This document shows, in pieces, positions 887-15,276 of a DNA stretch of 15,276 bases. Each line of letters opens with the position of its first letter. Position 1 is the first letter of the stretch. Under the pieces are notes generated by a model that was not told the origin of the DNA, made no database searches, and saw only the letters and a list, made by a program, of their open reading frames with translations. The position numbers and the translations under genes are program-made. Source of the DNA: a virus (lineage: Duplodnaviria; Heunggongvirae; Uroviricota; Caudoviricetes); IMG/VR virus record IMGVR_UViG_2609459826_000005, positions 1 to 15,276 of that record. The stretch is one strand, 5' to 3'.

Positions 887-888
887 CT

Positions 889-1637: not shown

Positions 1638-1653
1638 CCAACCCAACCAAATA

Positions 1654-1680: not shown

Positions 1681-1700
1681 AGTCAAAGAGGAAGTTTCAC

Positions 1701-2444
1701 ATGGCTAATTGCCCTAGCTCTAACGAGCGCCTATTCGGTGGCGCGGTGGTGCTGGAAGTCGCCGACGGCTGCCCGGATGTCAAACCACTTGAATCAGAGT
1801 GGAAGGCGCTGGCGGCCGGTACGTCCAAAGGCTTCGACTTCAACCCGAACTCGGTAACCTCAGATGCTGATGACGGCGGCGGCTATGTCGAAACCATCAT
1901 CACCAACAGTGACTTCACCCTGAGCTTTGAAGGTGAGGTCCGCAAGAAGGATAAACTGGATCAGTACGGCGTCGGCAAGTTCATCAAGTATTTCGCTGAC
2001 GAGCTGAAAGCCAAACGCCAGCCCGGAATCTGGGTGCGAATGGACTACGGCCCGGTTGAATTCATCGGCTACATGAACATCAACGCGCTGAGTTCTGACG
2101 GCGGCACCAACGATATCGTCACGTTCTCTACCGAGTTCAAAGTGGGCGATGCCAGCACCATCGAAGTTAACGAAGTGACGGCAGTGGCGGTGACCGGCGT
2201 AACGGTGACCCCAGCTACCAGCACTGGCGCGGCAGGCGGTACCAGCACCTTTACGGTGAATATCGCCCCGACCGGCGCAACCAACAAAGACTTCACCGTA
2301 GCATCAACCGATCCAACCAAAGCCACTGCTACCGCCTCCGGTACCACCGTGACGGTGAACCGCGTCGCCGCCGGCAGCGCGCAGATCGTCATTAACACCG
2401 AAGACGGTAATTTTGTTGCAACCCATACCGTTACCGTCAGCTAA
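1701..2444 (+). CDS. major tail protein with C-terminal Ig-like (Big_2-type) domain
   Basis: 247 aa; AAAGAGGAAG RBS at 1685-1694. The C-terminal ~90 aa is Thr/Val/Ala-rich with alternating beta-strand pattern (VTGVTVTPATSTGAAGGTSTFTVNIAPTGATNKDFTVASTDPTKATATASGTTVTVNRVAAGSAQIVINT), typical of Ig-like domains appended to siphovirus major tail proteins (cf. lambda gpV C-terminus). Confidence 0.8.
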   Translation: MANCPSSNERLFGGAVVLEVADGCPDVKPLESEWKALAAGTSKGFDFNPNSVTSDADDGGGYVETIITNSDFTLSFEGEVRKKDKLDQYGVGKFIKYFADELKAKRQPGIWVRMDYGPVEFIGYMNINALSSDGGTNDIVTFSTEFKVGDASTIEVNEVTAVAVTGVTVTPATSTGAAGGTSTFTVNIAPTGATNKDFTVASTDPTKATATASGTTVTVNRVAAGSAQIVINTEDGNFVATHTVTVS

Positions 2445-2504
2445 CGGCCATTCCAAAGGGTGGCCGCGGCTGCCCTTGATAATGACCGTTAACCTGGGTG
2501 AAAC

Positions 2505-3179
2505 ATGACAGTAGTAGCCATGAAAGAAATTGGCGAGATCGCCATTAGTGACAGCCGGGAAGGTGGTAAGGACTACTTACTGCGGCCTTCCTTCTCAGCG
2601 ATGATGAAGGTTGGTGAACCGGATGAGATCGTGAAGATGTACGCACTAATTCACGGTAGCGAGGTGCAGCAATTGATAGCCTCTTGTACTGCTGGCTTCG
2701 ACTCAATTCCTGAATGGATGGCTCCATCCTTCAATGTTGCAGCTGACAATCTGCTATTCACGTCAATGCTGGTATTGCAGGCCTGCTGTGATGATGATCT
2801 CGATGAGATAATTGGCGAGTGGGCTGATGAAGGCGGCAGAATCTCCTATCAGCCCGGCATGATGGCAAAAGATTTAATCATCATTTTCGCCCGCGAGCTG
2901 ATGCAGCACGGCATCGTAGGTAAAGCCAGTGTGCGACGCCTGCAGCGGCATGAGTCAGGCGAAACGACGAACGAGTTTAAGGCCTTCGACTACATCAGCG
3001 CGGCGCGTAGCCACTTCGGCATGAGCCGGGAAGAGGCTGCGGCGCTGACCATGACCGAGTTTCAGCTGATGCTGGCGCAGAAATACCCTGATCAGAAGGG
3101 TTTCACGCGGGATGAGTACGACGCGGTTGCGGATGACTTCCTGGCGAAACAGGCTGCGAGAAGGGCTAAGCAGAAGTAG
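2505..3179 (+). CDS. putative tail assembly chaperone (position-based)
   Basis: 224 aa acidic protein in the slot between major tail and tape measure genes, where gpG/GT-type chaperones are encoded. No slippery frameshift site recognised; the call is synteny-based only. Confidence 0.4.
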   Translation: MTVVAMKEIGEIAISDSREGGKDYLLRPSFSAMMKVGEPDEIVKMYALIHGSEVQQLIASCTAGFDSIPEWMAPSFNVAADNLLFTSMLVLQACCDDDLDEIIGEWADEGGRISYQPGMMAKDLIIIFARELMQHGIVGKASVRRLQRHESGETTNEFKAFDYISAARSHFGMSREEAAALTMTEFQLMLAQKYPDQKGFTRDEYDAVADDFLAKQAARRAKQK

Positions 3180-3195
3180 CCCACCCAAATAATCA

Positions 3196-3223
3196 AGCCT
3201 CGGCATTGTCCGGGGCTTTTTTG
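3196..3223 (+). terminator. rho-independent terminator after the chaperone gene
   Basis: AGCCTCGG / CCGGGGCT 8 bp stem (one G-U wobble) with CATTGT loop followed by TTTTTTGT, 17 nt after stop at 3179. Confidence 0.6.
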
Positions 3224-3261
3224 TACCCGCAGTAAATCAACCGCGCTTCACACGCGCATTG

Positions 3262-3267
3262 TATAAT
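3262..3267 (+). promoter_or_regulatory. consensus -10 hexamer TATAAT upstream of the KilA-N gene (candidate moron promoter)
   Basis: Exact TATAAT at 3262-3267 immediately preceded by TG, located between a terminator and the KilA-N start. No good -35 found at 17 bp spacing. Confidence 0.35.
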
Positions 3268-3341
3268 CCTAGAGCCTACAGTAAGCGAGCCTGAGAGTTG
3301 CCGTTATAGGTGGCGACCTCTCTAGGAGGCGGCTTCTCTGT

Positions 3342-3905
3342 GTGACAGGCTCTGCTTTCTATAGGCAAATCGCAATGAAATATCCAACCGTATCAGTAAG
3401 CGGCGTTTCCGTTCGCGTTGATGACGAAGGGCGCTATAACCTTAATGATCTTCATGCAGCCGCAGTGGCAAACGGAGAGGCAACAGAACAGCAGCGCCCA
3501 AGTCAGTTTTTGCGTAGTGCTCAAGTTAAGCGCTTCATAAAAGCACTAAAAGCCAAAGTGCAAAAAAGCACTCTGGAACAAATTCAACCACTTAATGTTA
3601 TTAAAGGTGGGGATGAACCAGGCGTTTGGGGTGTTGAACTGTTGGCGATCCGTTATGCCGCATGGATTAAGCCGGAATTTGAGATTGAAGTATATGAGGT
3701 GTTCCGAACGGTGGTTCGCCTCGGCATTAGTGCCATGTCTCGCCTGAACAAAATCGACCACATCATCAACACCGAATCGAAAGAGATCAGCAAGTGCGCC
3801 AGCCAGATGGCCCGGTGGGGTGTCGGTGGTCGTAAGCAGCTATTGCACGCAGCAAGAGATCGCGTCGCCGATGAAGTTCAGATGTACCTGCCAGGCATCG
3901 CGTGA
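3342..3905 (+). CDS. KilA-N domain protein
   Basis: GTG start 3342 with AGGAGG at 3325-3330 (alternative ATG at 3375). N-terminal region contains the hallmark KilA-N pattern (VSVRVDDEGRYNLNDLHAAA...RPSQFLR...IKGG...GVWGVELLAIRYAAWIKPEFEIEV). Confidence 0.8.
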   Translation: MTGSAFYRQIAMKYPTVSVSGVSVRVDDEGRYNLNDLHAAAVANGEATEQQRPSQFLRSAQVKRFIKALKAKVQKSTLEQIQPLNVIKGGDEPGVWGVELLAIRYAAWIKPEFEIEVYEVFRTVVRLGISAMSRLNKIDHIINTESKEISKCASQMARWGVGGRKQLLHAARDRVADEVQMYLPGIA

Positions 3906-3912
3906 AGGTGGC

Positions 3913-3935
3913 AAGGCCCACTCAGGTGGGCTTTA
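3913..3935 (+). terminator. hairpin terminator after KilA-N gene (weak T tract)
   Basis: AGGCCCAC-TCAG-GTGGGCTT hairpin (GCCCAC/GTGGGC perfect stem) followed by TTTAG; 8 nt after stop at 3905. Confidence 0.45.
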
Positions 3936-3960
3936 GATCTCTTATCTCGGGGAGAGGGCG

Positions 3961-4155
3961 GTGAAACCTAAGCAAACATTAACCATTAACAATTTGATAC
4001 CATTCCCAAGCGAAGCGCCTAGAGAAGAGACCATAGAGTGTAATGATGTTTTTCTTGATAATTCAATGCTAGAGGAAAAAATTTCTACTCGAATAGGTTT
4101 TAGTAGATTGATTTTTGTTAATGAAATCAACTCGATCAATTCCATCTCGGAGTGA
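3961..4155 (+). CDS. small hypothetical protein (64 aa) in AT-rich moron segment
   Basis: GTG start with GGGGAGAGGG just upstream; ends 37 nt before the peptidase gene. A 73 aa ORF on the opposite strand (3942-4163) covers the same DNA, so strand and reality are uncertain. Confidence 0.3.
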   Translation: MKPKQTLTINNLIPFPSEAPREETIECNDVFLDNSMLEEKISTRIGFSRLIFVNEINSINSISE

Positions 4156-4192
4156 ATTATCATATGCGCATACCTTTCAATAGGATGCGAAA

Positions 4193-4771
4193 ATGATTAA
4201 CGAATATGATTTCGTGACAGCGGCAGGTCATATAGCTAAACATGAAGCCGGTCACTGGCTTGCGGCGTTTAAATTAGGCTGGAACCCAAGAGGTATAGGC
4301 TTGAGAGTGCCGCCTCATGCTAAAGATCACATGGGTTATTCAGAAACAAGTCACAAAGTCGATTTAAGCAGCATTGAGGATGTCCGGGATTACGCAAGAG
4401 GCAGGGTAAAAATTCTCTACAGTGGCGTATATGCAGAGCACTTTGACGGAAAAGACTTTGATCACGAATCCATAATGCGTGATATGAAGCGTGGCGGCGG
4501 TGCTTATTCTGATTTCTGGAAAGCTGAAGAAATCTACTTCTTTTACTACAACTGCCTCGACACAAAGGGAGAGTGGGATGAAGAGTTTCAGCCTGTTATT
4601 TGCGACGTTCAGCTCATGATCGAAATGCATTATGACTTCATCACCTTGGTAGCCAAATTTGTTATGGCGAGGGCAAATTTTGTCGGTCAACGCATAGAGA
4701 TTTCATCCACCGACCTGATCAGGCTGTTCGAAAATAGCGCCATTAATCTACCGGATCACGACCCTGCCTAA
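4193..4771 (+). CDS. standalone FtsH-like (peptidase M41-type) zinc metallopeptidase domain protein
   Basis: 192 aa; HEAGH at residues 17-21 (AGHIAKHEAGHWLAAFKLGWNPRGIGLRV), followed by a PRG motif and LYSG...AE / GGGAYSD segments. This parallels the FtsH protease domain (HEAGHA...IIPRGRALG...LYGGRLAEE...GASND) as recalled from E. coli FtsH. No AAA+ ATPase or transmembrane part. AGGA 7 nt upstream of ATG. Confidence 0.65.
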   Translation: MINEYDFVTAAGHIAKHEAGHWLAAFKLGWNPRGIGLRVPPHAKDHMGYSETSHKVDLSSIEDVRDYARGRVKILYSGVYAEHFDGKDFDHESIMRDMKRGGGAYSDFWKAEEIYFFYYNCLDTKGEWDEEFQPVICDVQLMIEMHYDFITLVAKFVMARANFVGQRIEISSTDLIRLFENSAINLPDHDPA

Positions 4772-4883
4772 CTGCGGGTTTTTCCGGCGCTAGCCTCTTG
4801 AGATCAATAAATCAGCGTTTGCCGTTGCGCCTGTGCTATTCCTGGGTAGGATGTTTCCACTTTTACCAATGGGGAATAGGGAT

Positions 4884-5270
4884 ATGAAGCGTTTACTGAT
4901 CATGGCTATTGCTGGGCTATCACTAACCGGCTGCGGCAAACCTGCACCGACAAGAGATGAGGCCTTTCAAATGGCTAAGCAGGAAATGTCGATGGCTCTT
5001 TGTGGCGATAGGAGTGCAAGCTGTTTTATTGCTGAAGGAGGAAGCTCTAAAGTATCAGAGAAGAAAAATGACAATACCTATAACGCCTCAGCTACATTTA
5101 ACAGCCTAAAAGGGAAGGGCAAGGATTTGGAATATAGCGGCGGGGGCGTTTTTTTCGAAATAGATGACGAAACAAGGGCTGTATATGTCAAATCCATCTC
5201 AGCATGGTCTGAGGATGGAAAAAAGAGCATTGAGCTTTGTGGTTCGAACTATAAATTCTGTACTAAATGA
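4884..5270 (+). CDS. small lipoprotein (128 aa), candidate superinfection-exclusion moron
   Basis: Likely start ATG 4884 (in-frame upstream GTG/ATG at 4833/4851/4869 lack a signal peptide). N-terminus MKRLLIMAIAGLSLTGC has a basic n-region, hydrophobic core and lipobox L-T-G-C. Followed by a strong terminator. Confidence 0.7.
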   Translation: MKRLLIMAIAGLSLTGCGKPAPTRDEAFQMAKQEMSMALCGDRSASCFIAEGGSSKVSEKKNDNTYNASATFNSLKGKGKDLEYSGGGVFFEIDDETRAVYVKSISAWSEDGKKSIELCGSNYKFCTK

Positions 5271-5286
5271 AGCCCTAATAAACAGC

Positions 5287-5309
5287 AACCCGCCGAGGCG
5301 GGTTTTTTT
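5287..5309 (+). terminator. rho-independent terminator (CCCGC-CGAG-GCGGG + T7) abutting the tape measure gene
   Basis: 5 bp GC stem 5289-5293/5298-5302, tetraloop, seven T at 5303-5309. Confidence 0.7.
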
Positions 5310-5324
5310 ATGCCCGGAGAGAAC

Positions 5325-7727
5325 ATGGCCAGCGAGGAGCAGGTAGGTAATATTGTCTATCAGGTGCAGATGGATGTTGCCAATCTTATTGAGGCGCAGC
5401 GTAAAGTAAACGAACGCCTTGAGAAGATGAATAGTGGAGTATCAAAAGCTGCCAGCAAGTTTGATGAGCTTCAGACCAGTATAAGCAGAGTAGCTGGCGC
5501 GATCGCTGCTTCAATTGTCGTTGAATGGGGGAAGGCATTTCTTGTAGCCGCTGACAATATGAGCCAACTTAACGCTCGAATTGAAAGGCTAACTGGTAGT
5601 GCTTCTGTCGCATCTCAGACCATGCAAAGTCTGATGAATATAAGCTCAACAACAGGAGGATCTCTCCAGGATACAGCCAAGCTGTGGGAAACGTTAAGCA
5701 CTGCGTTGCGGAGCACTGGTGCCACTAATGGCCAAATATTGCAGCTTACCGATACCCTTCAAAAAATTGGTCGAATTGGAGGCACATCTGCCGAGGAAAT
5801 GGCTAATGCGCTGCGCCAATTCGGACAGTCTATTTCATCCGGCGTTGTTAGAGCAGAAGAATTTAACTCTATTCTTGAGCAAATGCCTGAGTTGGCAAGG
5901 CAGATGGCGGCAGGGCTTGGAATTGGTATTGGTGAATTGCGTCAGTTGATGCTGGATGGGAAACTTTCTGCTCAAGATGCACTCAATGCAATTCAGAAGC
6001 AAACCAGCATCGTGAATGCAGAGTTCGCAAAATTGCCCCGCACCTTATCTCAGGCCAATGCTGCTCTTACCAATTCGTTTCTGTCAATGGTTGACTCAAT
6101 TAACCAGACTACAGGCGCGAGCAGAACCATGGTGGCTGTAATTGACTCCATCACCACAGCCATAGACAGGCTGACTGGGAAAACAGCTTCAGCAGCAGCT
6201 CAAATTTCCGATCTCAATAGCACAGCAGAGATGTTCGAGCGAAGGGCGAGGACATGGTCTTGGCTGGGCCTGGATGGTTGGGAGGCTCAAAGCAAGGCGC
6301 TTGCAGGGCTAAGCAACAAAGCTGCAGCTCTCGTTGGGGATATTTCTGCCGTGACCCAAGCCTCTCAAGAGGCCTCTAACACAAAGCCAATAAACATTAA
6401 AACGACCGGAGACGATGCGGCTACATCGAAGCTGATAAAAAACTCAGAGCGCCGCTTAGCGCTCGCCAAGCTGGAAGGTGAAGCCAGAGCCAGACTGCAG
6501 GCCCAATATGATGCAGCAGACGCTGGCATCACCGATCAGAAACGCATCAAAGCTCTTCAGGATGAATACGCAGAAACCTATCGGGTTACTGAGGCGCGGA
6601 AAGAGAGCAACAAAGAGGGCAAGACCTCCGCCTCGCAGGCTGAATCCATTGCTCAGAAACTGGCGAGCCTCAAACAGCAATCCGAACTCGCTGCAGATTC
6701 GACCAGTGAGTTGAGTCGAGAGCAGGCCATGCTAAGGGCCGAGCAATCCCTCGGCAGCGCCGCCACCCAGTCCCAGATTAAAGAGGCAAGGGAATACGCA
6801 GCCAGGACGTGGGACGTTGCTAATGCCCTGAAAATGCGTCAGCAGGCGGAGCAGGCCTCCCGGTTTATAAATCAGGAAGTGTCAGCTGCGAAGGTTCAAC
6901 GCGATCCTTACACAGGTGAAGCGCAGGACCCAGCCGCGCAGGTCAACGAGGAAGAGCAGCGTAAACTCGAGGCCCTGGCTAAATACCAGGAACTGGGCGT
7001 AATCAACGCGCAGCAGTTCGAAGACGGAAAGACGGCCATCGCAAGGCAGGCATCGAACGATCGCATCAGTATTGCCCAGCAGGAGGCTAAGCGTCAGGTT
7101 GACGTGATGAACATGCTGCTTGGCGGGATCGGTGATGGTTTCTCAGGCCTGGCTGAAATCGTGTCTAAAAGCGCTGGCGAAAGCAATGCCGCTTACAAGA
7201 CACTGTTCGCTATCAGTAAAGCCTTTGCGGTTGCTCAGTCCACTCTGAACCTTCAGCTTGCACTCTCAAACGCCATGGCCTCGGGTCCATTCCCCTGGAA
7301 CATGGCAGCAATGGCGCAGGTTGCTGCAGCTGGCGGCCAGGTGATCTCATCTATCGGCGCAATGTCATATGGTGGCGGGCGCGAACACGGCGGCCCGGTA
7401 TCTGCCAGCTCCATGTACCGTGTGGGCGAGGGCGGTAAACCTGAGATTTTCAAAGCCAGCAATGGCAGCCAGTACATGATCCCCGGCGATAACGGTCGCG
7501 TCATCAGTAACCGGGATATTGGCGGGGGTGGCGGGGCGTTCAATTACAGCCCGGTCATTCAGGTCAACGGTGATCCGACAGAGCAGACGCTTGCCATGCT
7601 TGAAGCGGCGGTTAAGCGCGGTGCGCAGCAAGGCTATGCCATGGCCGTCAGCGATGTCGCCAGCGGCAAAGGTAAGCTTTCCAACGCGCTGACCAACAAC
7701 TTCAACACCAGTCAACGCCTCACATAA
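5325..7727 (+). CDS. tail tape measure protein
   Basis: Long ORF (800 aa from ATG 5325; in-frame ATG also at 5310 but it abuts the terminator T-run, whereas CCCGGAG at 5313-5319 is a well-spaced RBS for 5325). Ala/Gln/Glu-rich coiled-coil-like middle, Gly-rich C-terminus, and position between chaperone and minor tail genes. Confidence 0.9.
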   Translation: MASEEQVGNIVYQVQMDVANLIEAQRKVNERLEKMNSGVSKAASKFDELQTSISRVAGAIAASIVVEWGKAFLVAADNMSQLNARIERLTGSASVASQTMQSLMNISSTTGGSLQDTAKLWETLSTALRSTGATNGQILQLTDTLQKIGRIGGTSAEEMANALRQFGQSISSGVVRAEEFNSILEQMPELARQMAAGLGIGIGELRQLMLDGKLSAQDALNAIQKQTSIVNAEFAKLPRTLSQANAALTNSFLSMVDSINQTTGASRTMVAVIDSITTAIDRLTGKTASAAAQISDLNSTAEMFERRARTWSWLGLDGWEAQSKALAGLSNKAAALVGDISAVTQASQEASNTKPINIKTTGDDAATSKLIKNSERRLALAKLEGEARARLQAQYDAADAGITDQKRIKALQDEYAETYRVTEARKESNKEGKTSASQAESIAQKLASLKQQSELAADSTSELSREQAMLRAEQSLGSAATQSQIKEAREYAARTWDVANALKMRQQAEQASRFINQEVSAAKVQRDPYTGEAQDPAAQVNEEEQRKLEALAKYQELGVINAQQFEDGKTAIARQASNDRISIAQQEAKRQVDVMNMLLGGIGDGFSGLAEIVSKSAGESNAAYKTLFAISKAFAVAQSTLNLQLALSNAMASGPFPWNMAAMAQVAAAGGQVISSIGAMSYGGGREHGGPVSASSMYRVGEGGKPEIFKASNGSQYMIPGDNGRVISNRDIGGGGGAFNYSPVIQVNGDPTEQTLAMLEAAVKRGAQQGYAMAVSDVASGKGKLSNALTNNFNTSQRLT

Positions 7728-7736
7728 GGAGTTCCC

Positions 7737-8207
7737 ATGGGGATCAGCAGCACCATTGATTTCCCGCACCAGTACCTACCAATGCCCCAGCGTTCCGGGC
7801 ATGGATTCACTCCCGTAAGCCCCCTCCAGCGTTCCATCATGACATCCGGCCGCACGCGCCAGCGTCGCAAATACACCTCGGTTCCGACTGAGGCGGGGGT
7901 TTCGTGGGTGTTTAATGATGCACAGGCGCAGCTGTTTGAGGTGTGGTTCAGGGATGTGATCACTGATGGCGCAGCGTGGTTCAACATGCGCATGCGCACG
8001 CCAATGGGCGTTGGTGACTACGTCTGCCGGTTCAAGGATATCTACGACGGGCCGGTGCTGTTCGGGTTAGGGTTCTGGAAATTCACGGCAACTCTGGAAC
8101 TGTGGGAACGTCCTATTCTGCCGCCTGGCTGGGGTAATTTCCCTGAGTTCATCGTGGGGCAGAGCATTATCGATTACGCGCTCAACAAGGAGTGGCCTGA
8201 AGCATGA
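7737..8207 (+). CDS. minor tail protein (distal tail/tip assembly)
   Basis: 156 aa; AAGGAG at 7725-7730; first gene after tape measure; stop overlaps next start. Confidence 0.6.
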   Translation: MGISSTIDFPHQYLPMPQRSGHGFTPVSPLQRSIMTSGRTRQRRKYTSVPTEAGVSWVFNDAQAQLFEVWFRDVITDGAAWFNMRMRTPMGVGDYVCRFKDIYDGPVLFGLGFWKFTATLELWERPILPPGWGNFPEFIVGQSIIDYALNKEWPEA

Positions 8208-8692
8208 CCAGTCCAACCCTGAACAGGCTTTACGCCAGCGGCGGCAGCGAGGCGCTACTGAATACGTTGCAGATTACCGTCGGTGGGCAGGATTACTGGC
8301 TGGTCGAGAACTTCGAAGATATCACCGCTGTTACAGAGGCGGGGGCGACAGTGACATTCCAGGCAGCTGCAATGGCCGTCGCGCTGCCAGCCAGGAACAA
8401 AGACGGTACGCAGGATCTGCAGTTCGCCATCAGCAACATTGACGGCATCGTTTCCACTGCGATACGCAACGCCCTGGCTAACCTGAACAACGGCGCGCTG
8501 GTAATGCGGCAGTACATATCGACCGACCTTAGCTACCCGGCGGCACCACCTATCGTTCTGCAGATTAAGGACGGGTACTGGAAGGCCACAGAGGTGCAAA
8601 TTACTGCCGGATTCCTGAATATCCTGAAAACCGCGTGGCCGCGATACCGATACACGCTTCCTGTGTTCCCGGGACTCCGCTACCTACAGTAG
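8204..8692 (+). CDS. minor tail protein
   Basis: 162 aa; ATG overlaps upstream stop (ATGA); AAGGAG 9 nt upstream; syntenic with lambda L-position genes though not recognisably lambda L. Confidence 0.6.
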   Translation: MTSPTLNRLYASGGSEALLNTLQITVGGQDYWLVENFEDITAVTEAGATVTFQAAAMAVALPARNKDGTQDLQFAISNIDGIVSTAIRNALANLNNGALVMRQYISTDLSYPAAPPIVLQIKDGYWKATEVQITAGFLNILKTAWPRYRYTLPVFPGLRYLQ

Positions 8693-8701
8693 GAAATCAC
8701 C

Positions 8702-9082
8702 ATGTTCAATCCAGATAAATACCGTTCTGTCGAGTGGCAGAAGGGCGGGCGCGCTTACCCCGCGCTTGACTGCTTTGGCATCGTCAACGAAATCAGGCGC
8801 GATCTGGGTCTGGATCCGTGGCCGGATTTCGCCGGAGTCACGAAGGATGATAACGGCCTAGATCGGGAAGCGCGCGGGCTGATTGCTGGCCTGACTCGAT
8901 GTGAACCGACCCCGGGCGCAGGTATCGCCTGTTATTCCGGCTCTGTTGTTACACACGTTGCCATCGTTGTCGAGATTGACGGCCAACTGCGCGCTGCGGA
9001 GTGCAATCCCCGCACTAACGTAACCTTTCTGCCGCTGGCGCGGTTTGCGCGCCGCTTTGTTCGCGTGGAGTATTACCAGTGA
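8702..9082 (+). CDS. NlpC/P60-family tail protein (gpK-like)
   Basis: 126 aa with putative catalytic Cys in ALDCFGIV and downstream His in VVTHVAIVVE, the Cys-His arrangement of NlpC/P60 peptidases; position equivalent to lambda K. Confidence 0.65.
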   Translation: MFNPDKYRSVEWQKGGRAYPALDCFGIVNEIRRDLGLDPWPDFAGVTKDDNGLDREARGLIAGLTRCEPTPGAGIACYSGSVVTHVAIVVEIDGQLRAAECNPRTNVTFLPLARFARRFVRVEYYQ

Positions 9083-12000
9083 CGATCCGTATCTATCCCT
9101 CCCGGTTGCCGGGCGAACCGTTGGAAACGCATCAACATGAAACGATGACCCTTAGCGCCTGGTTTGCGCAGAACGTGAAGGACTGGACGCCGGATCAGCA
9201 GCATCCGGTTGCGGTTGAAATCGACGGTGTCCCCGTCCCGCCGGCAGAGTGGACACTGCGCGTTATCAAGCGAGAAACAGACGTCAGGTTGTATCCGGTG
9301 CCATACGGTACCGGCGCAGAAATCGCTATCTGGGTTGCCGTCAGCGTAGCTGTCGCCTCTGCTGCGTACAGCATCTACATGATGAGTACAATGTCACAGG
9401 CGGGTGGCGGCGGTGCCCAGGCGGCCAGCGGAGACCAGATTGACCTCAACCCGGCCAAAGCGAACGCTGCGAAACTTGGTGATCCCATCCGGGAAATCTT
9501 CGGCAAATATCGGGTCTGGCCTGATTACGTTGTGCAGCCGGTAAGCCGGTTCGTCAACGAGACCAGCATGGAAACCAGCATGTTCCTGTGCGTGGGCGTC
9601 GGTGACATGGTGATTAACCAGTCCGATATCCGGATTGGCAATACGCCGATCTCCGCTTTCGGTACCGACGTGCGTTACACCATCTACCCACCTGGCACTA
9701 ATGTATCCGGCGACACGCGTACCGAAAACTGGTTCAACTCACCAGAGGTCGGGAATACCGGTTCCGGTACCGCCGGGCTGGACCTTGGCTCAAGCGGTCC
9801 GGAGACGGTCAGTATTATCGCTGACGCTCTGGTAGTGTCCGGAAACTCCATCACGCTCGTTGACGTATCGGCGTCAGGCGGCGATGAGGAGATCCCGCCG
9901 TCGTGGACTGTAGGAACGGTGATCACCGTGCTGGCGCCAAACTCTTATACGGTGGTGTCATCCGGCGGTTACAGCGTCATTTATGGCGGGATAGAGGAAC
10001 TTGCACCTTATGTCGGCATGCCGGTGACGCTGAACTATAACGGCAACGACTACGACCTGGTGATCGCCAGCTATGCCCCGGGCGTTCCGGCGGTACCCGG
10101 GGTTGGCGGCAGTGCCGCGACCTTAACCGCCAGCGCCGCGCCGACGACTTATGATTTCAGTACCGCACCTGTGACGTTCAGCATCAGCTGGCAGGGTACG
10201 ACCTACCCGGTCTCGCTGGTTACCAATTACGTCACCATGTCGGGTCTGGTTTCCTCGATCACCTCGCAGCTCTCAGGCTCCGGTCTGATTGCCAGAGATA
10301 ACAGTGGGCGTCTCGAAATCGGTGAGGCCAGCAGCCCGTTCGCTGGCGGTTCCATAACCAACAGCCCTTTACCCGCTGCTGTGTTCGGCGATGCGCCAGT
10401 CAATAAGGCGGGCGTGAAATCAACGGGCGGCACGGCGGAAGTCAGGGCGCACATTACCCTGGCTTACAACAGCGCCACCGGCACGCCGTTTACCGGGTTA
10501 CCGGAAGGCATTCAGCGGTTCTCGCTGGGGTTGGCTGGCAATCAGTTCCGGATCACCGATGTGGACAGCCAGACGGTCACGATTGAGCGGTTAACTGTGA
10601 CAACAGGCTCTGGCGGTGAAACCATCACGACGCCGGATCCATCGTGGCCTGGCTTCACTGAGCGCATGCTGCTGGATGCGACTGTAACGGGTGTCAGTGA
10701 CGATTATGAGTGGGTCGGCCCGTTCCTGGCCTGCCCGGACGGGGAAACGCTGGACGCATTCGAGGTGAACATCAACTTCCAGAGCGGCCTGGTGCGTTAT
10801 ACCGACCAGGGGAATAAACGCTCCATGCCGGTACGCCTGGTGATCCAGTATCGCAAGGTCGGCACCACCGCCTGGCAGCAGCAGTCTCCGTTCTATTCAC
10901 GCAGCACTGAAAACCAGATCGGGTTTACGCATCGCTACAGTGTGTCGCCGGGCCAATATGAGATCCGGATGCGCCGCACTGAACCGGTTAAGGGGGGCAG
11001 TACCCGCGACCAGGTATTCTGGCAGGCGCTGCGCTCACGACTCAGCAAGCGCCCCACGAAGTACAATGGTGTCACCACCATGGCGCTGACCGTGCGCACA
11101 GGGAATCGCCTGGCGGCCATGTCCGATCGCCGGATAAGCGTCACGCCAACCCGGATTTACAGTGGCGGCAGAACGGCGCGGAGCATTAGCGGGGCGCTTT
11201 ACCACGTCCTAGGGTCGCTGGGGTTCACGGCCAGTCAGATAGATACGGCGGCAATTGACGCGCTGGAACAAACCTACTGGACGCCACGCGGTGAGAAGTT
11301 CGACTGGGCGAGCGGGGAGAGCAAGTCAGCGCTTGAGGTATTGCAGAAAATCACCAACGCAGGGATGGGGTATTTTCTGCTGTCTGATGGGCTGGCGTCT
11401 GCCGGCAGGGAAGGCATTAAACCCTGGGTAGGCATGATCACCCCTCAGGAAACCACCGAGGAGCTGCAGACCGCGTTTAAAGCCCCGTCACAGGACGATT
11501 ACGACGGTGTGGACGTGACGTATATCAACGGCACCACCTGGGCAGAGGAGACCGTGCAGTGTCGCCTGCCTGGCAATCCTACGCCGTTGAAAATCGAGAG
11601 CTATACGCTGGATGGTGTTCTGGATGAGGACCGGGCCTACCGCATCGGCATGCGCCGGTTGCTGGGCTACCAGCTGCAGCGCCTGCAGCACACCACCTAC
11701 ACCGAGATGGATGCGCTCTGCTATGAGTTCATGGATCGCATAGTGCTGGCCGATGACATCCCGGGCAGCCAGACTCTTAGTTGCCTGATTACCGATATGA
11801 CGTATGACAGCAGCAAAATTACCATGACGCTAAGTGAGCCGCCGGACTGGTCGTTCCAGAACCCGCGCGTGATTATCCGCCATCAGGATGGCAGGGCATC
11901 AGCCATGGTGGTGCCGACACGCATTGACGACTTCACCATCTCGGTGCCGTACAGCGCCGCGCTGGAGCCCGAACTGTGGGCAATGAACGACGCGTACATT

Positions 12001-12165
12001 GAGCCGCCGCGACTGCTGTTCTGCTCGTCTGTGCGGGTGCCGTATGACGCCCTGGTAGGCGAAATATCACCGGGAAACGACGGTATCAGTCAGGTAACAG
12101 CAATTCAGTATCACCCCGGAAAATATGCCTACGATGACGCCACTTACCCCGGCGACGTTACTTAA
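9079..12165 (+). CDS. central tail fibre / tail tip protein with gpI-like N-terminal domain and gpJ-like core
   Basis: 1028 aa; GTG start overlaps upstream stop (GTGA). N-terminal ~200 aa resembles lambda gpI organisation (short soluble domain, hydrophobic stretch IAIWVAVSVAVASAAYSIYMM, then a PAKANAAKLG...IFGKYRV segment). Further in, QYEIRMRRTEPVKGGSTRDQVFWQALRS matches the lambda J NIRMRR...TLW motif as recalled. Confidence 0.75.
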   Translation: MTIRIYPSRLPGEPLETHQHETMTLSAWFAQNVKDWTPDQQHPVAVEIDGVPVPPAEWTLRVIKRETDVRLYPVPYGTGAEIAIWVAVSVAVASAAYSIYMMSTMSQAGGGGAQAASGDQIDLNPAKANAAKLGDPIREIFGKYRVWPDYVVQPVSRFVNETSMETSMFLCVGVGDMVINQSDIRIGNTPISAFGTDVRYTIYPPGTNVSGDTRTENWFNSPEVGNTGSGTAGLDLGSSGPETVSIIADALVVSGNSITLVDVSASGGDEEIPPSWTVGTVITVLAPNSYTVVSSGGYSVIYGGIEELAPYVGMPVTLNYNGNDYDLVIASYAPGVPAVPGVGGSAATLTASAAPTTYDFSTAPVTFSISWQGTTYPVSLVTNYVTMSGLVSSITSQLSGSGLIARDNSGRLEIGEASSPFAGGSITNSPLPAAVFGDAPVNKAGVKSTGGTAEVRAHITLAYNSATGTPFTGLPEGIQRFSLGLAGNQFRITDVDSQTVTIERLTVTTGSGGETITTPDPSWPGFTERMLLDATVTGVSDDYEWVGPFLACPDGETLDAFEVNINFQSGLVRYTDQGNKRSMPVRLVIQYRKVGTTAWQQQSPFYSRSTENQIGFTHRYSVSPGQYEIRMRRTEPVKGGSTRDQVFWQALRSRLSKRPTKYNGVTTMALTVRTGNRLAAMSDRRISVTPTRIYSGGRTARSISGALYHVLGSLGFTASQIDTAAIDALEQTYWTPRGEKFDWASGESKSALEVLQKITNAGMGYFLLSDGLASAGREGIKPWVGMITPQETTEELQTAFKAPSQDDYDGVDVTYINGTTWAEETVQCRLPGNPTPLKIESYTLDGVLDEDRAYRIGMRRLLGYQLQRLQHTTYTEMDALCYEFMDRIVLADDIPGSQTLSCLITDMTYDSSKITMTLSEPPDWSFQNPRVIIRHQDGRASAMVVPTRIDDFTISVPYSAALEPELWAMNDAYIEPPRLLFCSSVRVPYDALVGEISPGNDGISQVTAIQYHPGKYAYDDATYPGDVT

Positions 12166-12184
12166 CAGCATTTAAAAATTACCT

Positions 12185-12206
12185 GACCCGCTTCGGCGGG
12201 TTTTTT
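12185..12206 (+). terminator. rho-independent terminator (CCCGC-TTCG-GCGGG + T6) abutting the fibre gene
   Basis: 5 bp GC stem 12187-12191/12196-12200, tetraloop, six T at 12201-12206. Confidence 0.7.
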
Positions 12207-12221
12207 ATGCCCGGAGCGAGC

Positions 12222-13889
12222 ATGACCACATACCGCACGAATAATCCATTTGGGTCAATGGATCCGAAAGACCTTTTCGATAACTCCCAGAATCTTGACT
12301 ATGCCCTAAACGATATAACAAAATCCTTGTGGACAGACCGCTTAGGAAGAGTAAGGAAAAGTTATTGGGGAATGGAGCAGGCTTTTTCTGCTCAACTTAT
12401 CAGCCAGCAGCAAAGATTTAATTATTTCATTCAGAATTCAGGGTATAAAGTAATTGGTGAATATACCCAAGGTCCTCTGACTGTTACTGATTATAATCAA
12501 CTGATTCGCTATCAGAGTGAATTTTATAAATTAAATTCTTCTACTTCCATTCCATTTACCACTACGGGCAATGACTCCACGTCATGGTCAAACGATTCTT
12601 CACATTTTGTCAGTGTAGGGGATGCGGCCATTCGCCAAGAATTATCTGGTGCTGGCGGCTCAGGTTTGATTGGAGATTTACTCAAGCCTATCACGTGGGA
12701 TGGGTTTTCTGGAGGAGCGGCCTGGGACGGTGTAACCAATGATAATATTCCCTACCAGGCGGCAGCTCAATATGGTCGAAAATTTTTAATGCCATATGGC
12801 GTTGGAAATATAACAGAGTATTCAGTAGGTCTTTTTGCGCCGAATTTCTCTGTTCTTGGTGAGGCAGAGCAATTAGGCTCATTGCAATATCCTGTTGATG
12901 ATTTCCGTCCATCAAGGACGGATACAAAATACTCAAAGTATCACGAAACGGATCCAGCATCTAATCGATGGGATTCCTGTTCTATACATACAATTGTTAA
13001 ATGTCCTCAGGACGGTGCTAATCCAAAAGGAAATGCGGCAGCTGTAACTGGATATGCCAGGGCTATCAATAGCGAGGGTGGTGATCATGTTGGCGTACAT
13101 GGTAGAGCAGAAGGTGATACCAGTTACGACTTCGGTACTGGGATGGGGTTGTGGGGTGGATGGCTGTCAGCCGTTTACAGACCTAATACAGGCTCAGCTG
13201 GGAAGCCAATAAAGTCTATTATTGGTTGTGAGATTGACGTGCAAAATGATGGGCCACACGCACAAAACCCCAATCCGGATGGTGTTGGTGAGCTGCGTGG
13301 TCTCGCGGTAGGGAATACTGGCACCGGCCATCTTAATCAAGGCGTTGATGTATTCGCTAACAATAGCGGTGCGCGTGGAAGGTGGTGGATGGGCGTTCAC
13401 GTACGTGCTAATTCCATTGTAGGAAGACATCTGGTATCAACAGAGGGGGAAGTTGGTAATGCAATGGTGATTGCTGGAGCGGCATCGTCAGGGACGCGTT
13501 ACGGCGGATTAAAATTTAGTAAATATCCCTACACAGCGGTAGGACAAGGAGGTCATCTTTCTTATGGAATTGATTTCAGGGAGGCAACAATTCGCTTACA
13601 AAACGCGATTGTAATGGGGCCTCAGCACCGGATTACATGGGAGCCTGACACTGCAAAGGGTGTTGCGGTAGAGACAGAGGGAGGGGATGTAATTACTTTC
13701 CGGGGATATAACATAGCCATAAATAACTCCAAAGTTTTGGGGACTAGGCAAACTGGTATTTTTAATATGTCGGGGACGGCAGATGGAACCTCATACAATA
13801 CAGAAACCGTCACACTTGTAAATCTTGCCAGATACCTCAAGAAAGTAACTGATGCATTAATATTTCATGGCCTTATTGGCCCAACTTGA
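12222..13889 (+). CDS. tail fibre / tailspike protein (putative receptor-binding protein, possible depolymerase)
   Basis: 555 aa from ATG 12222 (in-frame ATG at 12207 abuts the terminator; CCCGGAG RBS serves 12222). Last large gene of the tail cluster; visibly lower GC than neighbours; Gly/Asn/Thr-rich C-terminal half suggestive of a beta-rich binding or enzymatic domain. Confidence 0.65.
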   Translation: MTTYRTNNPFGSMDPKDLFDNSQNLDYALNDITKSLWTDRLGRVRKSYWGMEQAFSAQLISQQQRFNYFIQNSGYKVIGEYTQGPLTVTDYNQLIRYQSEFYKLNSSTSIPFTTTGNDSTSWSNDSSHFVSVGDAAIRQELSGAGGSGLIGDLLKPITWDGFSGGAAWDGVTNDNIPYQAAAQYGRKFLMPYGVGNITEYSVGLFAPNFSVLGEAEQLGSLQYPVDDFRPSRTDTKYSKYHETDPASNRWDSCSIHTIVKCPQDGANPKGNAAAVTGYARAINSEGGDHVGVHGRAEGDTSYDFGTGMGLWGGWLSAVYRPNTGSAGKPIKSIIGCEIDVQNDGPHAQNPNPDGVGELRGLAVGNTGTGHLNQGVDVFANNSGARGRWWMGVHVRANSIVGRHLVSTEGEVGNAMVIAGAASSGTRYGGLKFSKYPYTAVGQGGHLSYGIDFREATIRLQNAIVMGPQHRITWEPDTAKGVAVETEGGDVITFRGYNIAINNSKVLGTRQTGIFNMSGTADGTSYNTETVTLVNLARYLKKVTDALIFHGLIGPT

Positions 13890-13915
13890 TTTAATAAATA
13901 TTCTGAGGATAATAA

Positions 13916-14083
13916 ATGGACAGCCAAGTAGTACAAAATATCATGCAATTTATGCTGCGTGTTAATCTTTCCGGACAGGAGGTCCCGGCGTTTAATGTTG
14001 CAATGAATGCATTGCAGGAAGAGTTGATCAAAAGTGAAAAAAACCATGAAAGGGAGGTTGAATAATGGCTTTGAAAACAAATG
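13916..14083 (+). CDS. small hypothetical protein (55 aa)
   Basis: ATG 13916 with GAGGA 6 nt upstream, in an AT-rich stretch right after the fibre gene; overlaps the next ORF by 19 nt. Below the 60 aa cut-off of the supplied ORF track; found by manual translation. Confidence 0.3.
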
Positions 14084-14310
14084 ATGCCGGTTCAGGGTTA
14101 TATATACGCGTCGAGTTACCACGCGTACATGGCAAATACCGTGCGCAGTTTGACCTTGTTCAATATGTTAACCACCCTGTCACAGGAGATAAGGCGGAAG
14201 TGGGTCGTGAAACAATGGAGTGTGATTACGATCTGAATGGAGCTAATGTAATTGAGCAATGCTACTTTTACGCCAAGGCCAAGGTGCCTTTTGGAGTTTT
14301 AGATTGCTAG
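14065..14310 (+). CDS. hypothetical protein (81 aa)
   Basis: ATG 14065 preceded by strong RBS AAGGGAGG at 14048-14056; no recognisable motif. Confidence 0.45.
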   Translation: MALKTNDAGSGLYIRVELPRVHGKYRAQFDLVQYVNHPVTGDKAEVGRETMECDYDLNGANVIEQCYFYAKAKVPFGVLDC

Positions 14311-14342
14311 GCTCTCGCGCAGATCTCTCTCCGATTGCACAT

Positions 14343-14609
14343 GCCATGGCTGCAGTAGCTGTGCAGTTATTACTTGCAATTACGTCTGGAAATTGGTGTT
14401 GTGGCGGTGTGCTGGGATGTTTATGGTTCATATCCAGAGAGCACACCCAAGCTGAATATCGCTGGATTGCTCAGTTCGGCGAAGGCAAGCGCGCCAACAT
14501 GCCTTGGTGGGGCGGGTTCGACTGGCGAGTGTGGAATCTGCCCAGCCTTCTCGACTGGCTGATTCCGGTGCTGGCCTGTAGTGTCGTTTATTTTGTCTCC
14601 ACCATCTGA
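14343..14609 (+). CDS. small two-helix membrane protein (88 aa), Trp-rich loop
   Basis: Start chosen at ATG 14343 because the listed start at 14259 lies inside the preceding ORF. Hydrophobic segments AAVAVQLLLAITSGNWCCGGVLGCLWFI and LLDWLIPVLACSVVYFVSTI flank a loop containing NMPWWGGFDWRVW. Confidence 0.45.
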   Translation, partial: AMAAVAVQLLLAITSGNWCCGGVLGCLWFISREHTQAEYRWIAQFGEGKRANMPWWGGFDWRVWNLPSLLDWLIPVLACSVVYFVSTI

Positions 14610-14665
14610 CTTCTGTAATCGGCATTGATAGGCGTCGCCTCATTGATCTGCACCCCTTTCAAAAC

Positions 14666-14685
14666 TACTGTATATAAAAACAGTA
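14666..14685 (+). promoter_or_regulatory. LexA (SOS) box TACTGTATATAAAAACAGTA
   Basis: CTGT-N8-ACAG with AT-rich spacer, 17/20 match to the E. coli consensus TACTGTATATATATACAGTA; sits directly upstream of AAGGAG (14687-14692) and the GTG start at 14702. Confidence 0.7.
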
Positions 14686-14701
14686 TAAAGGAGTGCAGAT
14701 C

Positions 14702-14941
14702 GTGCCCCGCAAATCAGACATTCACAGCGCATTTGTCGCTGCAATACAGCTAAATCCTAAGGGATACCAGTGTTTACGCACGGACGACTTTATTCGAGAA
14801 CTTGCCAAGGTGCACTGGCATTTCAGTCAGGAAGATGCCAATGACTGGATAGAGCGCTACCAGGAGTTCTTCGTCGATAAGACGCCTGATAACAGCCAGA
14901 ACAGGTTGTGGATCCTGCGCAACATGGGGAGGGTGCTCTGA
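14702..14941 (+). CDS. hypothetical protein (79 aa), first gene of a putative LexA-regulated operon
   Basis: GTG 14702 lies 9 nt after AAGGAG (the listed start at 14693 has zero spacing to the RBS). Stop TGA overlaps the ATG of the next gene (TGATG). No recognised motif. Confidence 0.5.
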   Translation: MPRKSDIHSAFVAAIQLNPKGYQCLRTDDFIRELAKVHWHFSQEDANDWIERYQEFFVDKTPDNSQNRLWILRNMGRVL

Positions 14942-15276
14942 TGGGGTTTCCTTCACCGGCGGGCGACTACGTAGAGCAGCGGTTAACACCGGAGCGTATC
15001 TGCGGGATCGGCATGGACAGCCGCATCCTCGAAACATCATCCGGCTTTGCCGTTATCGAGCCGTGCACCAGGCTGGTACAGAATCAGGTTCTGCTGATTT
15101 TGTCTGGCGGCCGGACTCAGTTTGCCCGGGTAATGGGTAGGGCGCTGATTTGTGATGATGGCGAAGCGATCGAAGGTGATGCAGCTGAAGAGGCTGAGGT
15201 TATGAGGCGGGTGACGCACTTTATCAACAGCACTGATGCTGCGATATCTCTTGAGGCGGCATTGGCGCAGTTTTGA
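14941..15276 (+). CDS. UmuD-like (LexA/S24 superfamily-related) protein, divergent
   Basis: 111 aa starting MGFPSPAGDYVEQRL, matching the N-terminal arm motif of UmuD/MucA (GFPSPAADYVEQRIDL / GFPSPAQGYEKQEL as recalled). The canonical GDSM serine and the catalytic lysine context are not evident. Stop codon is the last three bases of the window. Confidence 0.5.
   Translation: MGFPSPAGDYVEQRLTPERICGIGMDSRILETSSGFAVIEPCTRLVQNQVLLILSGGRTQFARVMGRALICDDGEAIEGDAAEEAEVMRRVTHFINSTDAAISLEAALAQF

Follow-up and report, generated by a model that had tools for sequence, protein, structure and literature searches.

In phage lambda, the tail tip proteins gpI and gpJ are encoded separately, and gpI has been described as a lumenal plug that has two predicted transmembrane helices and whose N-domain is unresolved (PMC11101478). 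The fusion of both functions in one chain has been known since 2006, when TAPI-TAPJ fusions encoded beside NlpC genes lacking a JAB domain were reported by Iyer, Burroughs and Aravind (PMC1779556), in an analysis that holds no structure and does not account for an insert in the middle of the chain. Hub structures of the gpI-gpJ fusion type have been solved between 2024 and 2026. In Shigella phage Sf11, the 'baseplate hub 2 protein' gp14 (PDB 9OCC chain E; its equivalent in phage chi is the hub of PDB 8VJH) is present in three copies, and the Sf11 tip as a whole is considered the counterpart of the chi tip; the O-antigen is bound by tailspikes that sit on the distal tail protein, and the host range of Sf11 follows the tailspike. 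Equally, the hub gp23 of Aeromonas phage Avs-1 possesses a gpI-like lumenal N-terminal region and a distal domain that forms a tripod-like tip (PMC13612043).

Here, a locus of this kind has been analysed in a window of 15,276 nucleotides, the whole stretch of caudoviral DNA at positions 1 to 15,276 of IMG/VR virus record IMGVR_UViG_2609459826_000005. The gene of interest is an ordinary, correctly read gene and not a new system; its product is a siphovirus tail-tip hub protein of a known family, with a gpI-like module and a gpJ hub core in one chain, and the locus matches the TAPI-TAPJ fusion architecture (PMC1779556). Very probably, a siphovirus prophage uses it as the hub of a tail tip of the chi/Sf11/Avs-1 type. 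The original prediction, made from the sequence alone, which had read the gene as a fusion of gpI-like and gpJ-like functions separated by an insert, was essentially right overall. In their order, the parts of the protein run parallel to lambda gpI and then gpJ; the features are collected in Table 1.

Table 1. Features of the tail-tip hub gene and of the tail genes that surround it (nucleotide positions in the window; residues of the hub protein)
Feature	Residues	Position	Strand	Basis or remark
Tape measure protein		5310..7727	+	PF20155 8.6e-55; several tape-measure PHROGs
Probable distal tail protein		7737..8207	+	phrog_384 2e-53; directly after tape measure gene
DUF1833 minor tail protein, read as baseplate hub 1 (gpL N-domain-like)		8204..8692	+	PF08875 6.6e-34; phrog_396 3e-50
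gpK-like gene, NlpC/P60-CHAP half only, no JAB domain		8702..9082	+	translationally coupled to hub gene
Tail-tip hub gene (TipJ family, baseplate hub 2 type)		9079..12165	+	1028 aa and stop codon, GTG start
N-terminal beta-grasp (ubiquitin-like) domain, homologous to lambda gpI N-domain (TAPI)	1-76	9079..9306	+	hhalign, AF2
Hydrophobic helix, gpI H1/H2 counterpart, putatively membrane-inserting or lumenal	78-107	9310..9399	+	hydropathy, model
Gly-rich linker QAGGGGAQAASG and N129-x4-G134-x3-(P/R)138-x3-G142 motif, then YPDY	108-160	9400..9558	+	hhalign, conservation
Segment like extreme gpJ N-terminus (J 21-55, 'ISEGPIEG...LNSTPV')	161-220	9559..9738	+	hhalign
Gly/Ser/Thr/Val-rich, beta-rich extra region without lambda gpJ counterpart	221-522	9739..10644	+	composition, model
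Subdomain A of extra region	221-335			
Nested extra module of about 120 aa in extra region	336-454			
Subdomain C of extra region	455-522, continuing to about 555			
Hub core, lambda gpJ 78-604 equivalent (FNIII-A and hub domains)	523-1024	10645..12150	+	hhalign
FNIII-A_GpJ domain with IRMRR...FWQAL motif	556-653	10744..11037	+	Pfam PF24801
Separate tail fibre or spike, conserved N-terminal anchor and swapped distal part		12207..13889	+

PHROG

A single reading frame in a conserved tail gene order

The reading frame of the hub gene has the extent and length originally described; its start codon shares a GTGA overlap with the stop codon of the upstream gene and is preceded by a GGAG-type ribosome-binding site 8-9 nucleotides upstream. 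Across hundreds of relatives the protein is kept whole in a single ORF, whose length stays similar as identity falls from 96% to 26%. In 100 phage records, one piece covers 80% or more of the protein, and among the matches listed there are 120 homologues of 1018-1037 aa by which it is fully covered. No frameshift, named beforehand along with a sequencing error as what might split the ORF into two genes, is present. An artefact, by frameshift or assembly error, joining an I-like and a J-like gene, to which the separate coding of both parts in lambda is the sole hint, has thus a negligible probability and was rejected: N block and C block occur in one chain in representatives down to about 26% identity, and Sf11 gp14 is likewise one chain in the cryo-EM model and was also detected by mass spectrometry.

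Tape measure, distal tail protein, DUF1833, NlpC, hub and fibre genes follow one another in this order in Klebsiella phage vB_VIPKPNMC05 and in Escherichia coli prophages as well, and Sf11 shows the same gene order with a separate spike gene downstream. Single-sequence searches of the neighbouring genes against the Sf11 parts gave weak matches or none; the probable distal tail protein, with 156 aa here versus 457 aa in Sf11, matched its Sf11 counterpart gp17 (9occ_C) only weakly (E 0.19). The DUF1833 protein, which contains no cysteines, would by gene order and the literature be the equivalent of Sf11 gp16 and Avs-1 gp21. The product of the gpK-like gene, which unlike its lambda counterpart lacks a JAB domain, matches Pfam CHAP weakly (3.5e-4) and aligns by BLASTP with lambda K 54-149 (E 0.009), including the DC(F/Y) and His positions; its relatives are labelled 'CHAP domain-containing protein' in RefSeq.

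The gpJ-like hub core

Family membership of the hub protein is indicated over its full length by phrog_469 'tail protein' (E 8e-242, PHROGs) and over residues 555-1017 by NF040662 of NCBIfam, the 'host specificity factor TipJ family', which is matched at model positions 2-477 of 477 (E 3e-120, 401.9 bits versus a cut-off of 140). In a profile alignment (hhalign), residues 523-1024 correspond to J 78-604 with a probability of 99% and an E-value of 3.2e-18. The IRMRR...FWQAL motif of gpJ, originally noticed near residue 625, is present at residues 629-651 (nt 10963-11031; IRMRR at 629-633 and FWQAL at 647-651) within a domain that matches PF24801 (FNIII-A_GpJ) at 54.3 bits versus a gathering score of 27 (E 2e-14). 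By BLASTP, residues 512-646 align with J 70-193 (E 1e-3), with the IRMRR stretch placed on 'FNIRMRRMTP' of lambda J. With the family-model, Pfam and profile matches taken together, this resemblance lies far above chance. Phage-tail_3 (PF13550) stays below its cut-off of 23 for the hub protein (12.7 bits, E 0.12), and 51 of 54 family members match it (best E 1.8e-13).

The same assignment is reached by structure comparison, for which AF2 models were built from shallow alignments (34 and 20 sequences; pTM 0.40 and 0.53), with low confidence at residues 76-136. The best solved Foldseek match is Sf11 gp14 (9occ_E; E 1.3e-33 over 959 alignment columns), followed by lambda gpJ chains (E 1e-20 to 1e-23) and then T1 (4e-18), T5 pb3 (2e-8), JBD30, the gene transfer agent and chi. 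A profile search equally retrieved Sf11 gp14 (E 1e-55) in two stretches, one in the N block and one in the C block. Sf11 gp14 is the closest solved structure, in which residues 35-192 correspond to residues 41-206 of the hub protein and residues 390-823 to residues 596-1018. The fold-level identity is, however, only about 14%, and gp14 is with 828 aa the shorter protein: its middle region comprises about 150 aa, versus about 300-335 aa in the hub protein, including residues 336-454. With lambda gpJ, the hub protein shares the hub core, FNIII-A, the IRMRR motif and the fold; it differs by an insertion of about 300 aa at the position of J 55-78 and by the gpI-like module fused to its N-terminus.

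An N-terminal counterpart of gpI

The proposed gpI-like N-terminus has been borne out by profile alignment, which thus detected gpI-like as well as gpJ-like regions. When a profile of the N block built from 105 family sequences was aligned with a diverse gpI profile, residues 1-154 were placed colinearly on gpI 15-206 with a probability of 90% (P 1.6e-6; hhalign), and the reversed and 20 column-shuffled controls gave P-values of 0.017 or worse. Most of this signal comes from the beta-grasp part, which on its own aligns residues 29-78 with gpI 44-97 (probability 88%, P 3.4e-6). The AF2 model of residues 1-76 displays the element order beta-beta-alpha-beta-beta-beta (pLDDT 63-83). In Sf11 gp14, the first 80 residues are unmodelled, with the model starting from residue 81, which fits a flexible beta-grasp domain. 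P75 and G77 are conserved in 81% and 70% of family members, respectively.

The subsequent stretch contains the highest hydropathy of the protein (Kyte-Doolittle 19-aa peak of 1.85 at residues 82-100), and coincides with a low-confidence model helix at residues 79-107; in 97 of the 105 family members, a window with a hydropathy of 1.2 or more lies at the same position. Further downstream, residues 102-147 are placed on gpI 156-199, with a non-significant P-value of 0.023 for this C-terminal motif segment alone. N129 and G142 are invariant in the 105 representatives, and the spacing of the N-x4-G-x3-P-x3-G motif is identical in the C-terminal segment of gpI (N181-G186-P190-G194). With lambda gpI, the module has in common a beta-grasp N-domain, a hydrophobic helical stretch, a linker rich in glycine, a motif of the same spacing and the position after the gpK-like gene; it differs from gpI as it is not a separate protein, has one hydrophobic helix versus two and falls below the thresholds of the curated model.

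Indeed, Lambda_tail_I (PF06805) was not matched by the hub protein at E-values up to 1, phmmer and BLASTP against lambda gpI retrieved nothing for it, and the weak matches among 54 family members include other beta-grasp families (Pfam ThiS in six and TGS in one) beside Lambda_tail_I in one (E 0.032). Together with the concentration of the hhalign signal in the beta-grasp part, these results might speak for a family-specific assembly or anchoring domain that shares with gpI a fold and a hydrophobic stretch without homology or functional equivalence. Such an origin is very improbable considering the colinearity across nearly all of gpI, the exact spacing of four conserved motif residues and the location of the module exactly at the gpI position between the gpK-like gene and the J core, with no separate gpI gene present between the gpK-like gene and the hub gene. 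Published precedents, the TAPI-TAPJ fusion and a related hub whose lumenal region resembles gpI, argue against it as well. The interpretation of the N-terminal 160 aa as the counterpart of the separate lambda gpI protein is therefore supported.

The extra region

After the gpI-like module, a short segment bears a weak to moderate resemblance, not significant by itself, to the extreme N-terminus of gpJ, as judged from sequence profiles: residues 163-194 align with J 21-55 at P 2-4e-4 (probability 37-49%; hhalign), with the best of 20 column-shuffled controls at P 0.022. It is followed by a region that has been originally described as a Gly/Ser/Thr/Val-rich insert of about 400 aa at 9750-10900. 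The enrichment has been recovered, as these four residues amount to 46% of residues 221-555 versus 30-33% in the flanks, and charged residues to 12% versus 19-22%. The range, on the other hand, was too long because it runs into the J-homologous FNIII-A domain; the part without counterpart comprises about 300 aa (nt 9739-10644).

Lying between the stretch that resembles the gpJ N-terminus and FNIII-A, the extra region is a beta-rich decoration that is folded and modular. Structure prediction of residues 215-560 gives a beta-rich folded region with a pLDDT of 79.9. Relatives of 880-915 aa align to residues 216-335 and 455-555 and lack residues 336-454, and across the family the extra region falls into discrete length classes of about 35, 150, 210, 260, 320, 370 and 510-545 aa. 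The suggestion that the insert is variable or Ig/FN3-like was partly right, as the length is modular across the family; in close relatives, the extra region is not hypervariable but conserved to the same degree as other parts of the protein (58-66% identity versus 52% for FNIII-A), and the predicted fold is of another type than proposed. The top Foldseek matches for residues 215-560 are domains D2-D3 of FliD and D2/D3 of FliC, not Ig or FN3 domains, with 5h5w matched at E 4e-4 (probability 0.99-1.0, with TM-scores of only 0.2-0.37 for a predicted model as query) and 8erm also matched. By sequence, no match to the extra region was found in Pfam and the PDB; Flagellin_IN (PF07196) was matched by none of 20 insert sequences at E-values up to 10 and by one of 54 full-length family members at E 0.11. 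The likeness to FliD and flagellin outer domains would thus be one of predicted fold alone.

The hub of Avs-1 possesses a distal domain at the position of the extra region, which is shorter, with about 165 aa (PMC13612043); this comparison is based on the published description.

Absence of the distal gpJ domains and an exchangeable fibre

As originally predicted, the C-terminal receptor-binding part of gpJ is missing. The hub protein stops where J residue 604 would lie, and J 610-1132, with its Ig_J, Ig_J_second and tail-tip-fibre domains and the C-terminal domain for receptor binding, has no counterpart in it; at E-values up to 1, Ig_J, Ig_J_second, Phage_Tail_Tip and Ig_GpJ_C were all absent from the hub protein and all four found in lambda J. 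As the hub is devoid of the gpJ central fibre and receptor-binding domain, primary host recognition most likely occurs by a separate fibre or spike. Tail-fibre families of PHROGs match only residues 1-156 of the downstream fibre protein. GC content falls from position 12000 on, homology to E. coli prophages, whose downstream genes differ, stops within window positions 12300-12645, and in relatives about 87% identical the fibre is swapped beyond its conserved N-terminal anchor. The delegation of host recognition to the fibre gene, which had been presumed from the start, is in line with this exchange and with the binding of O-antigen by the Sf11 tailspikes; primary recognition would plausibly fall to this exchangeable fibre or spike, which is encoded apart from the hub.

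Alternatively, the extra region might, as the distal legs of the tip, bind a surface receptor and be the main receptor-binding device, such that the hub would still set the host specificity and the fibre would provide reversible first contact only. This possibility, although rather unlikely, deserves consideration as the extra region sits where other hubs bear cell-facing additions (see the discussion of Jersey and LSH1 in PMC13243795), varies in length and module content in discrete classes across the family and resembles surface-exposed FliD and flagellin outer domains in its fold; moreover, some relatives of the hub protein add lectin-like C-terminal domains, so hubs of the TipJ family can bear binding modules. 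However, what close relatives swap is the fibre gene, with the extra region as conserved in them as other parts of the protein, the host range of Sf11 tracks the tailspike, and no recognisable receptor-binding features were seen in the equivalent Avs-1 domain by the authors of the structure (PMC13612043). A binding function of the extra region would, besides, be compatible with primary recognition by the fibre or spike, as it could serve for a secondary receptor.

Proposed assembly and implications

By homology, three copies of the hub protein and three copies of the DUF1833 protein would be located under the ring of the distal tail protein and close the end of the tail tube. Residues 523-1024 would build the hub domains that lambda makes from gpJ 78-604, and the N-terminal module would act as a lumenal plug that keeps DNA and tape measure protein in place. 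Once triggered, this plug would be released towards the outer membrane, into which the hydrophobic helix may insert. Residues 221-522 most likely make up the distal 'legs' with which the tip faces the cell surface, and the fibre or spike would be attached via its conserved N-terminus, with a division of labour between hub and fibre.

Going beyond this proposal, the module at residues 336-454 together with its flanking subdomains might represent an acquired outer domain of the flagellar-cap or flagellin type at the cell-facing tip of the hub, which would function as a secondary adhesin or as a surface sensor that triggers the opening of the tip. Such an acquisition is quite unlikely; if true, the discrete length classes of the extra region would record repeated gain and loss of modules as hosts changed.

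Genomic context of the tail-tip hub

ORF, Pfam and PHROGs analyses place a siphovirus tail module on the plus strand of the window (see table). The GTG start of the 1028-aa ORF, the tail-tip hub, shares the sequence GTGA with the stop codon of the upstream K-like gene and is preceded by a GGAG-type ribosome-binding site. The gene order matches that of the Klebsiella phage vB_VIPKPNMC05 and of eight E. coli prophages with approximately 87% identity; a UmuD-like gene also comes after the fibre in vB_VIPKPNMC05. At its C-terminus (aa 146-246), the major tail protein has an Ig-like decoration domain (phrog_215, phrog_1280). Directly upstream of the tape measure gene, a low-GC island (3342-5270; GC 0.42-0.47) with three ORFs appears to be a moron-like insertion within the tail operon. 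The position of the DUF1833 minor tail protein is that of baseplate hub 1 or gpL. Lambda gpL contains an Fe-S cluster; the DUF1833 protein, whose sequence is devoid of cysteines, cannot carry a cluster of this kind. When the neighbour proteins (fibre, DUF1833, distal tail and K-like) were searched as single sequences against the PDB, the best match was the distal tail protein of Sf11 (E 0.19).

Features of the tail module and its surroundings in the window
Feature	Position (nt)	Strand	Assignment
Major tail protein	1701-2444	+	tail module
ORF in low-GC island	3342-3905		phrog_129 'transcriptional regulator'
ORF in low-GC island	4193-4771		phrog_36675, function unknown
ORF in low-GC island	4833-5270		N-terminus MKRLLIMAIAGLSLTGC, resembling a lipoprotein signal peptide with lipobox
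Tape measure protein	5310-7727	+	PF20155
156-aa protein	7737-8207	+	phrog_384
DUF1833 protein	8204-8692	+	tail module
NlpC/CHAP-like protein, 126 aa	8702-9082	+	K-like
Hub ORF, 1028 aa	9079-12165	+	GTG start
Terminator-like hairpin	12185-12202		with T-run, between hub stop and fibre start codon
Fibre-like ORF, 560 aa	12207-13889	+	downstream of hub
UmuD-like gene	14908-15276		phrog_3469, interrupted by window end

A large family of hub proteins

The hub fits phrog_469 'tail protein' over its full length (E 8e-242) and, with aa 555-1017, the NCBIfam model NF040662 'host specificity factor TipJ family phage tail protein' (401.9 bits with a cut-off of 140), which lambda J fits as well at J 145-590, while Pfam places FNIII-A_GpJ at aa 556-653. 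A hub match is found in 271 phage records, 100 of which cover at least 80% of the protein. A word-indexed search retrieved 753 clusters, with the closest among the matches listed being 96% identical and the listed proteins including those from Escherichia, Citrobacter, Enterobacter, Klebsiella, Serratia, Providencia and related genera. Clustered at 50% identity, 1461 representatives give a match with E <=1e-3. As the family is large and gene order is kept in relatives, the single long ORF postulated in the original prediction is genuine, and a frameshift joining two genes is ruled out by the conservation of the ORF.

In several GenBank phage records (e.g. ON470608.1, MK416017.1), hub homologues carry the label 'kinase' and the adjoining K-like gene 'nitrite transporter', apparently misannotations passed on from record to record; the current RefSeq names are 'host specificity factor TipJ family phage tail protein' for the hub and 'CHAP domain-containing protein' for the K-like gene. 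A minority of homologues (P0144, P0166, P0194, P0147, P0155) extend 140-340 aa past the hub core, with a Laminin_G_3 (concanavalin-like lectin) domain in P0194, so some hubs of the family bear an appended binding module; the hub of the window has none.

A gpI-like module followed by a gpJ-like core

The IRMRR and FWQAL motifs reside at aa 629-633 and 647-651, and hhalign of the family alignment with a nine-member gpJ alignment equates query (hub) 523-1024 with J 78-604 (probability 99%, E 3.2e-18). The hub protein ends at the equivalent of J 604, and Ig_J, Ig_J_second, Phage_Tail_Tip and Ig_GpJ_C, all found in lambda J, are not detected in the hub, in agreement with the predicted loss of the C-terminal part of J. 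Query 163-194 aligns with the extreme J N-terminus (J 21-55; nine J sequences; P 2-4e-4, probability 37-49%; best of 20 shuffled controls 0.022), a moderate indication, at the level of sequence, that the two segments correspond.

Neither BLASTP with lambda gpI nor curated models detect gpI in the hub, and a profile of the N-terminal block (N block; 105 sequences) reached an hhalign probability of just 22% with a narrow, lambda-like-only gpI alignment (Neff 1.8). Upon widening of the gpI profile by ten diverse homologues, which stem from phages of Mannheimia, Ralstonia, Burkholderia, Klebsiella, Escherichia, Pectobacterium, Pseudomonas, Vibrio and Psychrobacter, the N block aligned colinearly (query 1-154 with gpI 15-206; probability 90%, P 1.6e-6), and the beta-grasp alone reached P 3.4e-6 (query 29-78, gpI 44-97). 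In controls, with the profile reversed or its columns shuffled (20 shuffles), P was 0.017 or worse. No significant hhalign match was obtained between the N block and one J sequence. In the AlphaFold2 (AF2) model, the N-domain is predicted as beta-beta-alpha-beta-beta-beta followed by a helix (aa 79-107), where the hydrophobicity of the hub is highest; the hydrophobic segment is kept in 97 of 105 relatives. After a Gly-rich linker, the motif N129-x4-G134-x3-(P)138-x3-G142, in which the family shows no variation at N129 and G142, has the spacing of N181-G186-P190-G194 in lambda gpI; taken alone, this segment falls short of statistical significance (P 0.023). As the original prediction proposed, the hub thus combines, as judged by sequence profiles, gpI homology and subsequent gpJ hub-core homology in one chain, with the distal gpJ domains absent.

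The window has no separate gpI gene between its K-like and hub genes. The K-like protein aligns solely with the NlpC/P60-CHAP half of lambda K (K 54-149, E 0.009), and a JAB/MPN domain is absent from it. The same arrangement has been described for TAPI-TAPJ fusion operons, in which the K-like gene equally is without JAB (Iyer, Burroughs, Aravind 2006; PMC1779556). For TAPI, the same authors proposed that the beta-grasp domain is cleaved off; the JAB-less K-like gene prompts the question of whether such processing takes place in the fusion and which factor would perform it.

The extra region between the conserved blocks

The hub part without lambda counterpart comprises aa 221-522 (nt 9739-10644). 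The anticipated enrichment was recovered, as Gly, Ser, Thr and Val make up 46% of aa 221-555 compared with 30-33% in the flanks; the insert itself is shorter than had been estimated, since that estimate ran into FNIII-A. Among family representatives, the conserved N block is separated from the C block by a stretch of discrete lengths, in classes of ~35, 150, 210, 260, 320, 370 and 510-545 aa, with the 210-aa class commonest and the hub of the window in the 320-aa class. Relatives of 880-915 aa align to query 216-335 and 455-555 and lack aa 336-454, so the hub bears an additional nested module of ~120 aa, within which proteins of ~1190 aa possess a further insertion of ~155 aa. Identity among close relatives is 58-66% in the extra region, 52% in FNIII-A and 71% in the C-terminal core, a degree of conservation like that of the remaining protein; the extra region is a folded domain under constraint, neither a low-complexity nor a hypervariable tract.

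An Ig/FN3-like nature of the insert, as initially considered, finds no support from sequence, because a Pfam search across 20 insert sequences was empty and a PDB profile search gave no meaningful match. Structure prediction points elsewhere: the AF2 model of aa 215-560 alone (pLDDT 79.9) best matches the FliD D2-D3 and flagellin D2/D3 outer domains in the PDB (E 4e-4, probability 0.99-1.0, but low TM-scores of 0.2-0.37), and in a viral structure library a family member followed by tail sheath and tube decoration domains. The tripod-like tip of Avs-1 has legs that consist of the equivalent 'distal beta-rich domain' (aa 235-398).

Solved relatives and a proposed mode of action

In the PDB, phmmer with the single hub sequence gave only chance hits. 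A family profile retrieved gp14 of Sf11, an 828-aa 'baseplate hub 2 protein' (9OCC chain E; 1e-55), in two blocks (query 41-206 with gp14 35-192; query 596-1018 with gp14 390-823), followed by lambda J (1e-11). Foldseek with the AF2 model of the whole hub (pLDDT 72.8, pTM 0.40) equally ranks 9occ_E best (1.3e-33), with lambda gpJ chains at 1e-20 to 1e-23 and the T1 tip at 4e-18; further matches are T5 pb3, the gene-transfer-agent hub, the chi hub and the JBD30 hub, a more distant, T5 pb3-like relative. In the Sf11 virion, gp14 is present in three copies, with the model beginning at residue 81, and the distal tail protein bears six tailspike trimers, which recognise the O-antigen (PMC12724387). 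Cryo-EM of lambda showed that gpI plugs the lumen; its transmembrane helices are predicted, and its N-domain was not resolved in the structure (PMC11101478). For comparison, the N-terminal lumenal region of the Avs-1 hub gp23 has been reported as similar to this plug (PMC13612043).

By analogy to these solved relatives, three hub copies would assemble with the DUF1833 protein beneath the distal tail protein to give the hub, with the N-terminal module plugging the lumen below the tape measure protein; on triggering, its helix may enter the outer membrane. The middle region would be turned toward the cell surface, and primary recognition would be performed by the separate fibre or spike; the middle region (aa 221-522) may also bind receptor.

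The fibre ATG (12207) overlaps the T-run of the terminator-like hairpin, and a second ATG is located at 12222. From ~12000 on, GC content drops from ~0.59 to 0.43-0.46, and homology to the ~87%-identical E. coli prophages stops at 12300-12645, beyond which those prophages carry other fibre, spike or SGNH/GDSL genes. The fibre is exchangeable and has a conserved N-terminal anchor of ~150 aa, after which the sequence resembles a receptor-binding cassette that has been swapped.

Implications

The observation underlying the original prediction is confirmed and its interpretation supported save for the boundaries and the fold of the insert. The architecture was described in 2006, NCBIfam and PHROGs both have a name for the family, and structures of homologous tips have been solved; the nested module with its predicted FliD/flagellin-like fold is the only mildly new detail. 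The main import concerns annotation, with current understanding unchanged: 'kinase'-labelled hubs are better read as a tail-tip hub with its own gpI-like module and without receptor-binding fibre, and host-range prediction for such prophages should therefore target the fibre or spike encoded downstream, which is exchangeable. The modular middle region is a possible handle on how siphovirus tips diversify their cell-facing surface.
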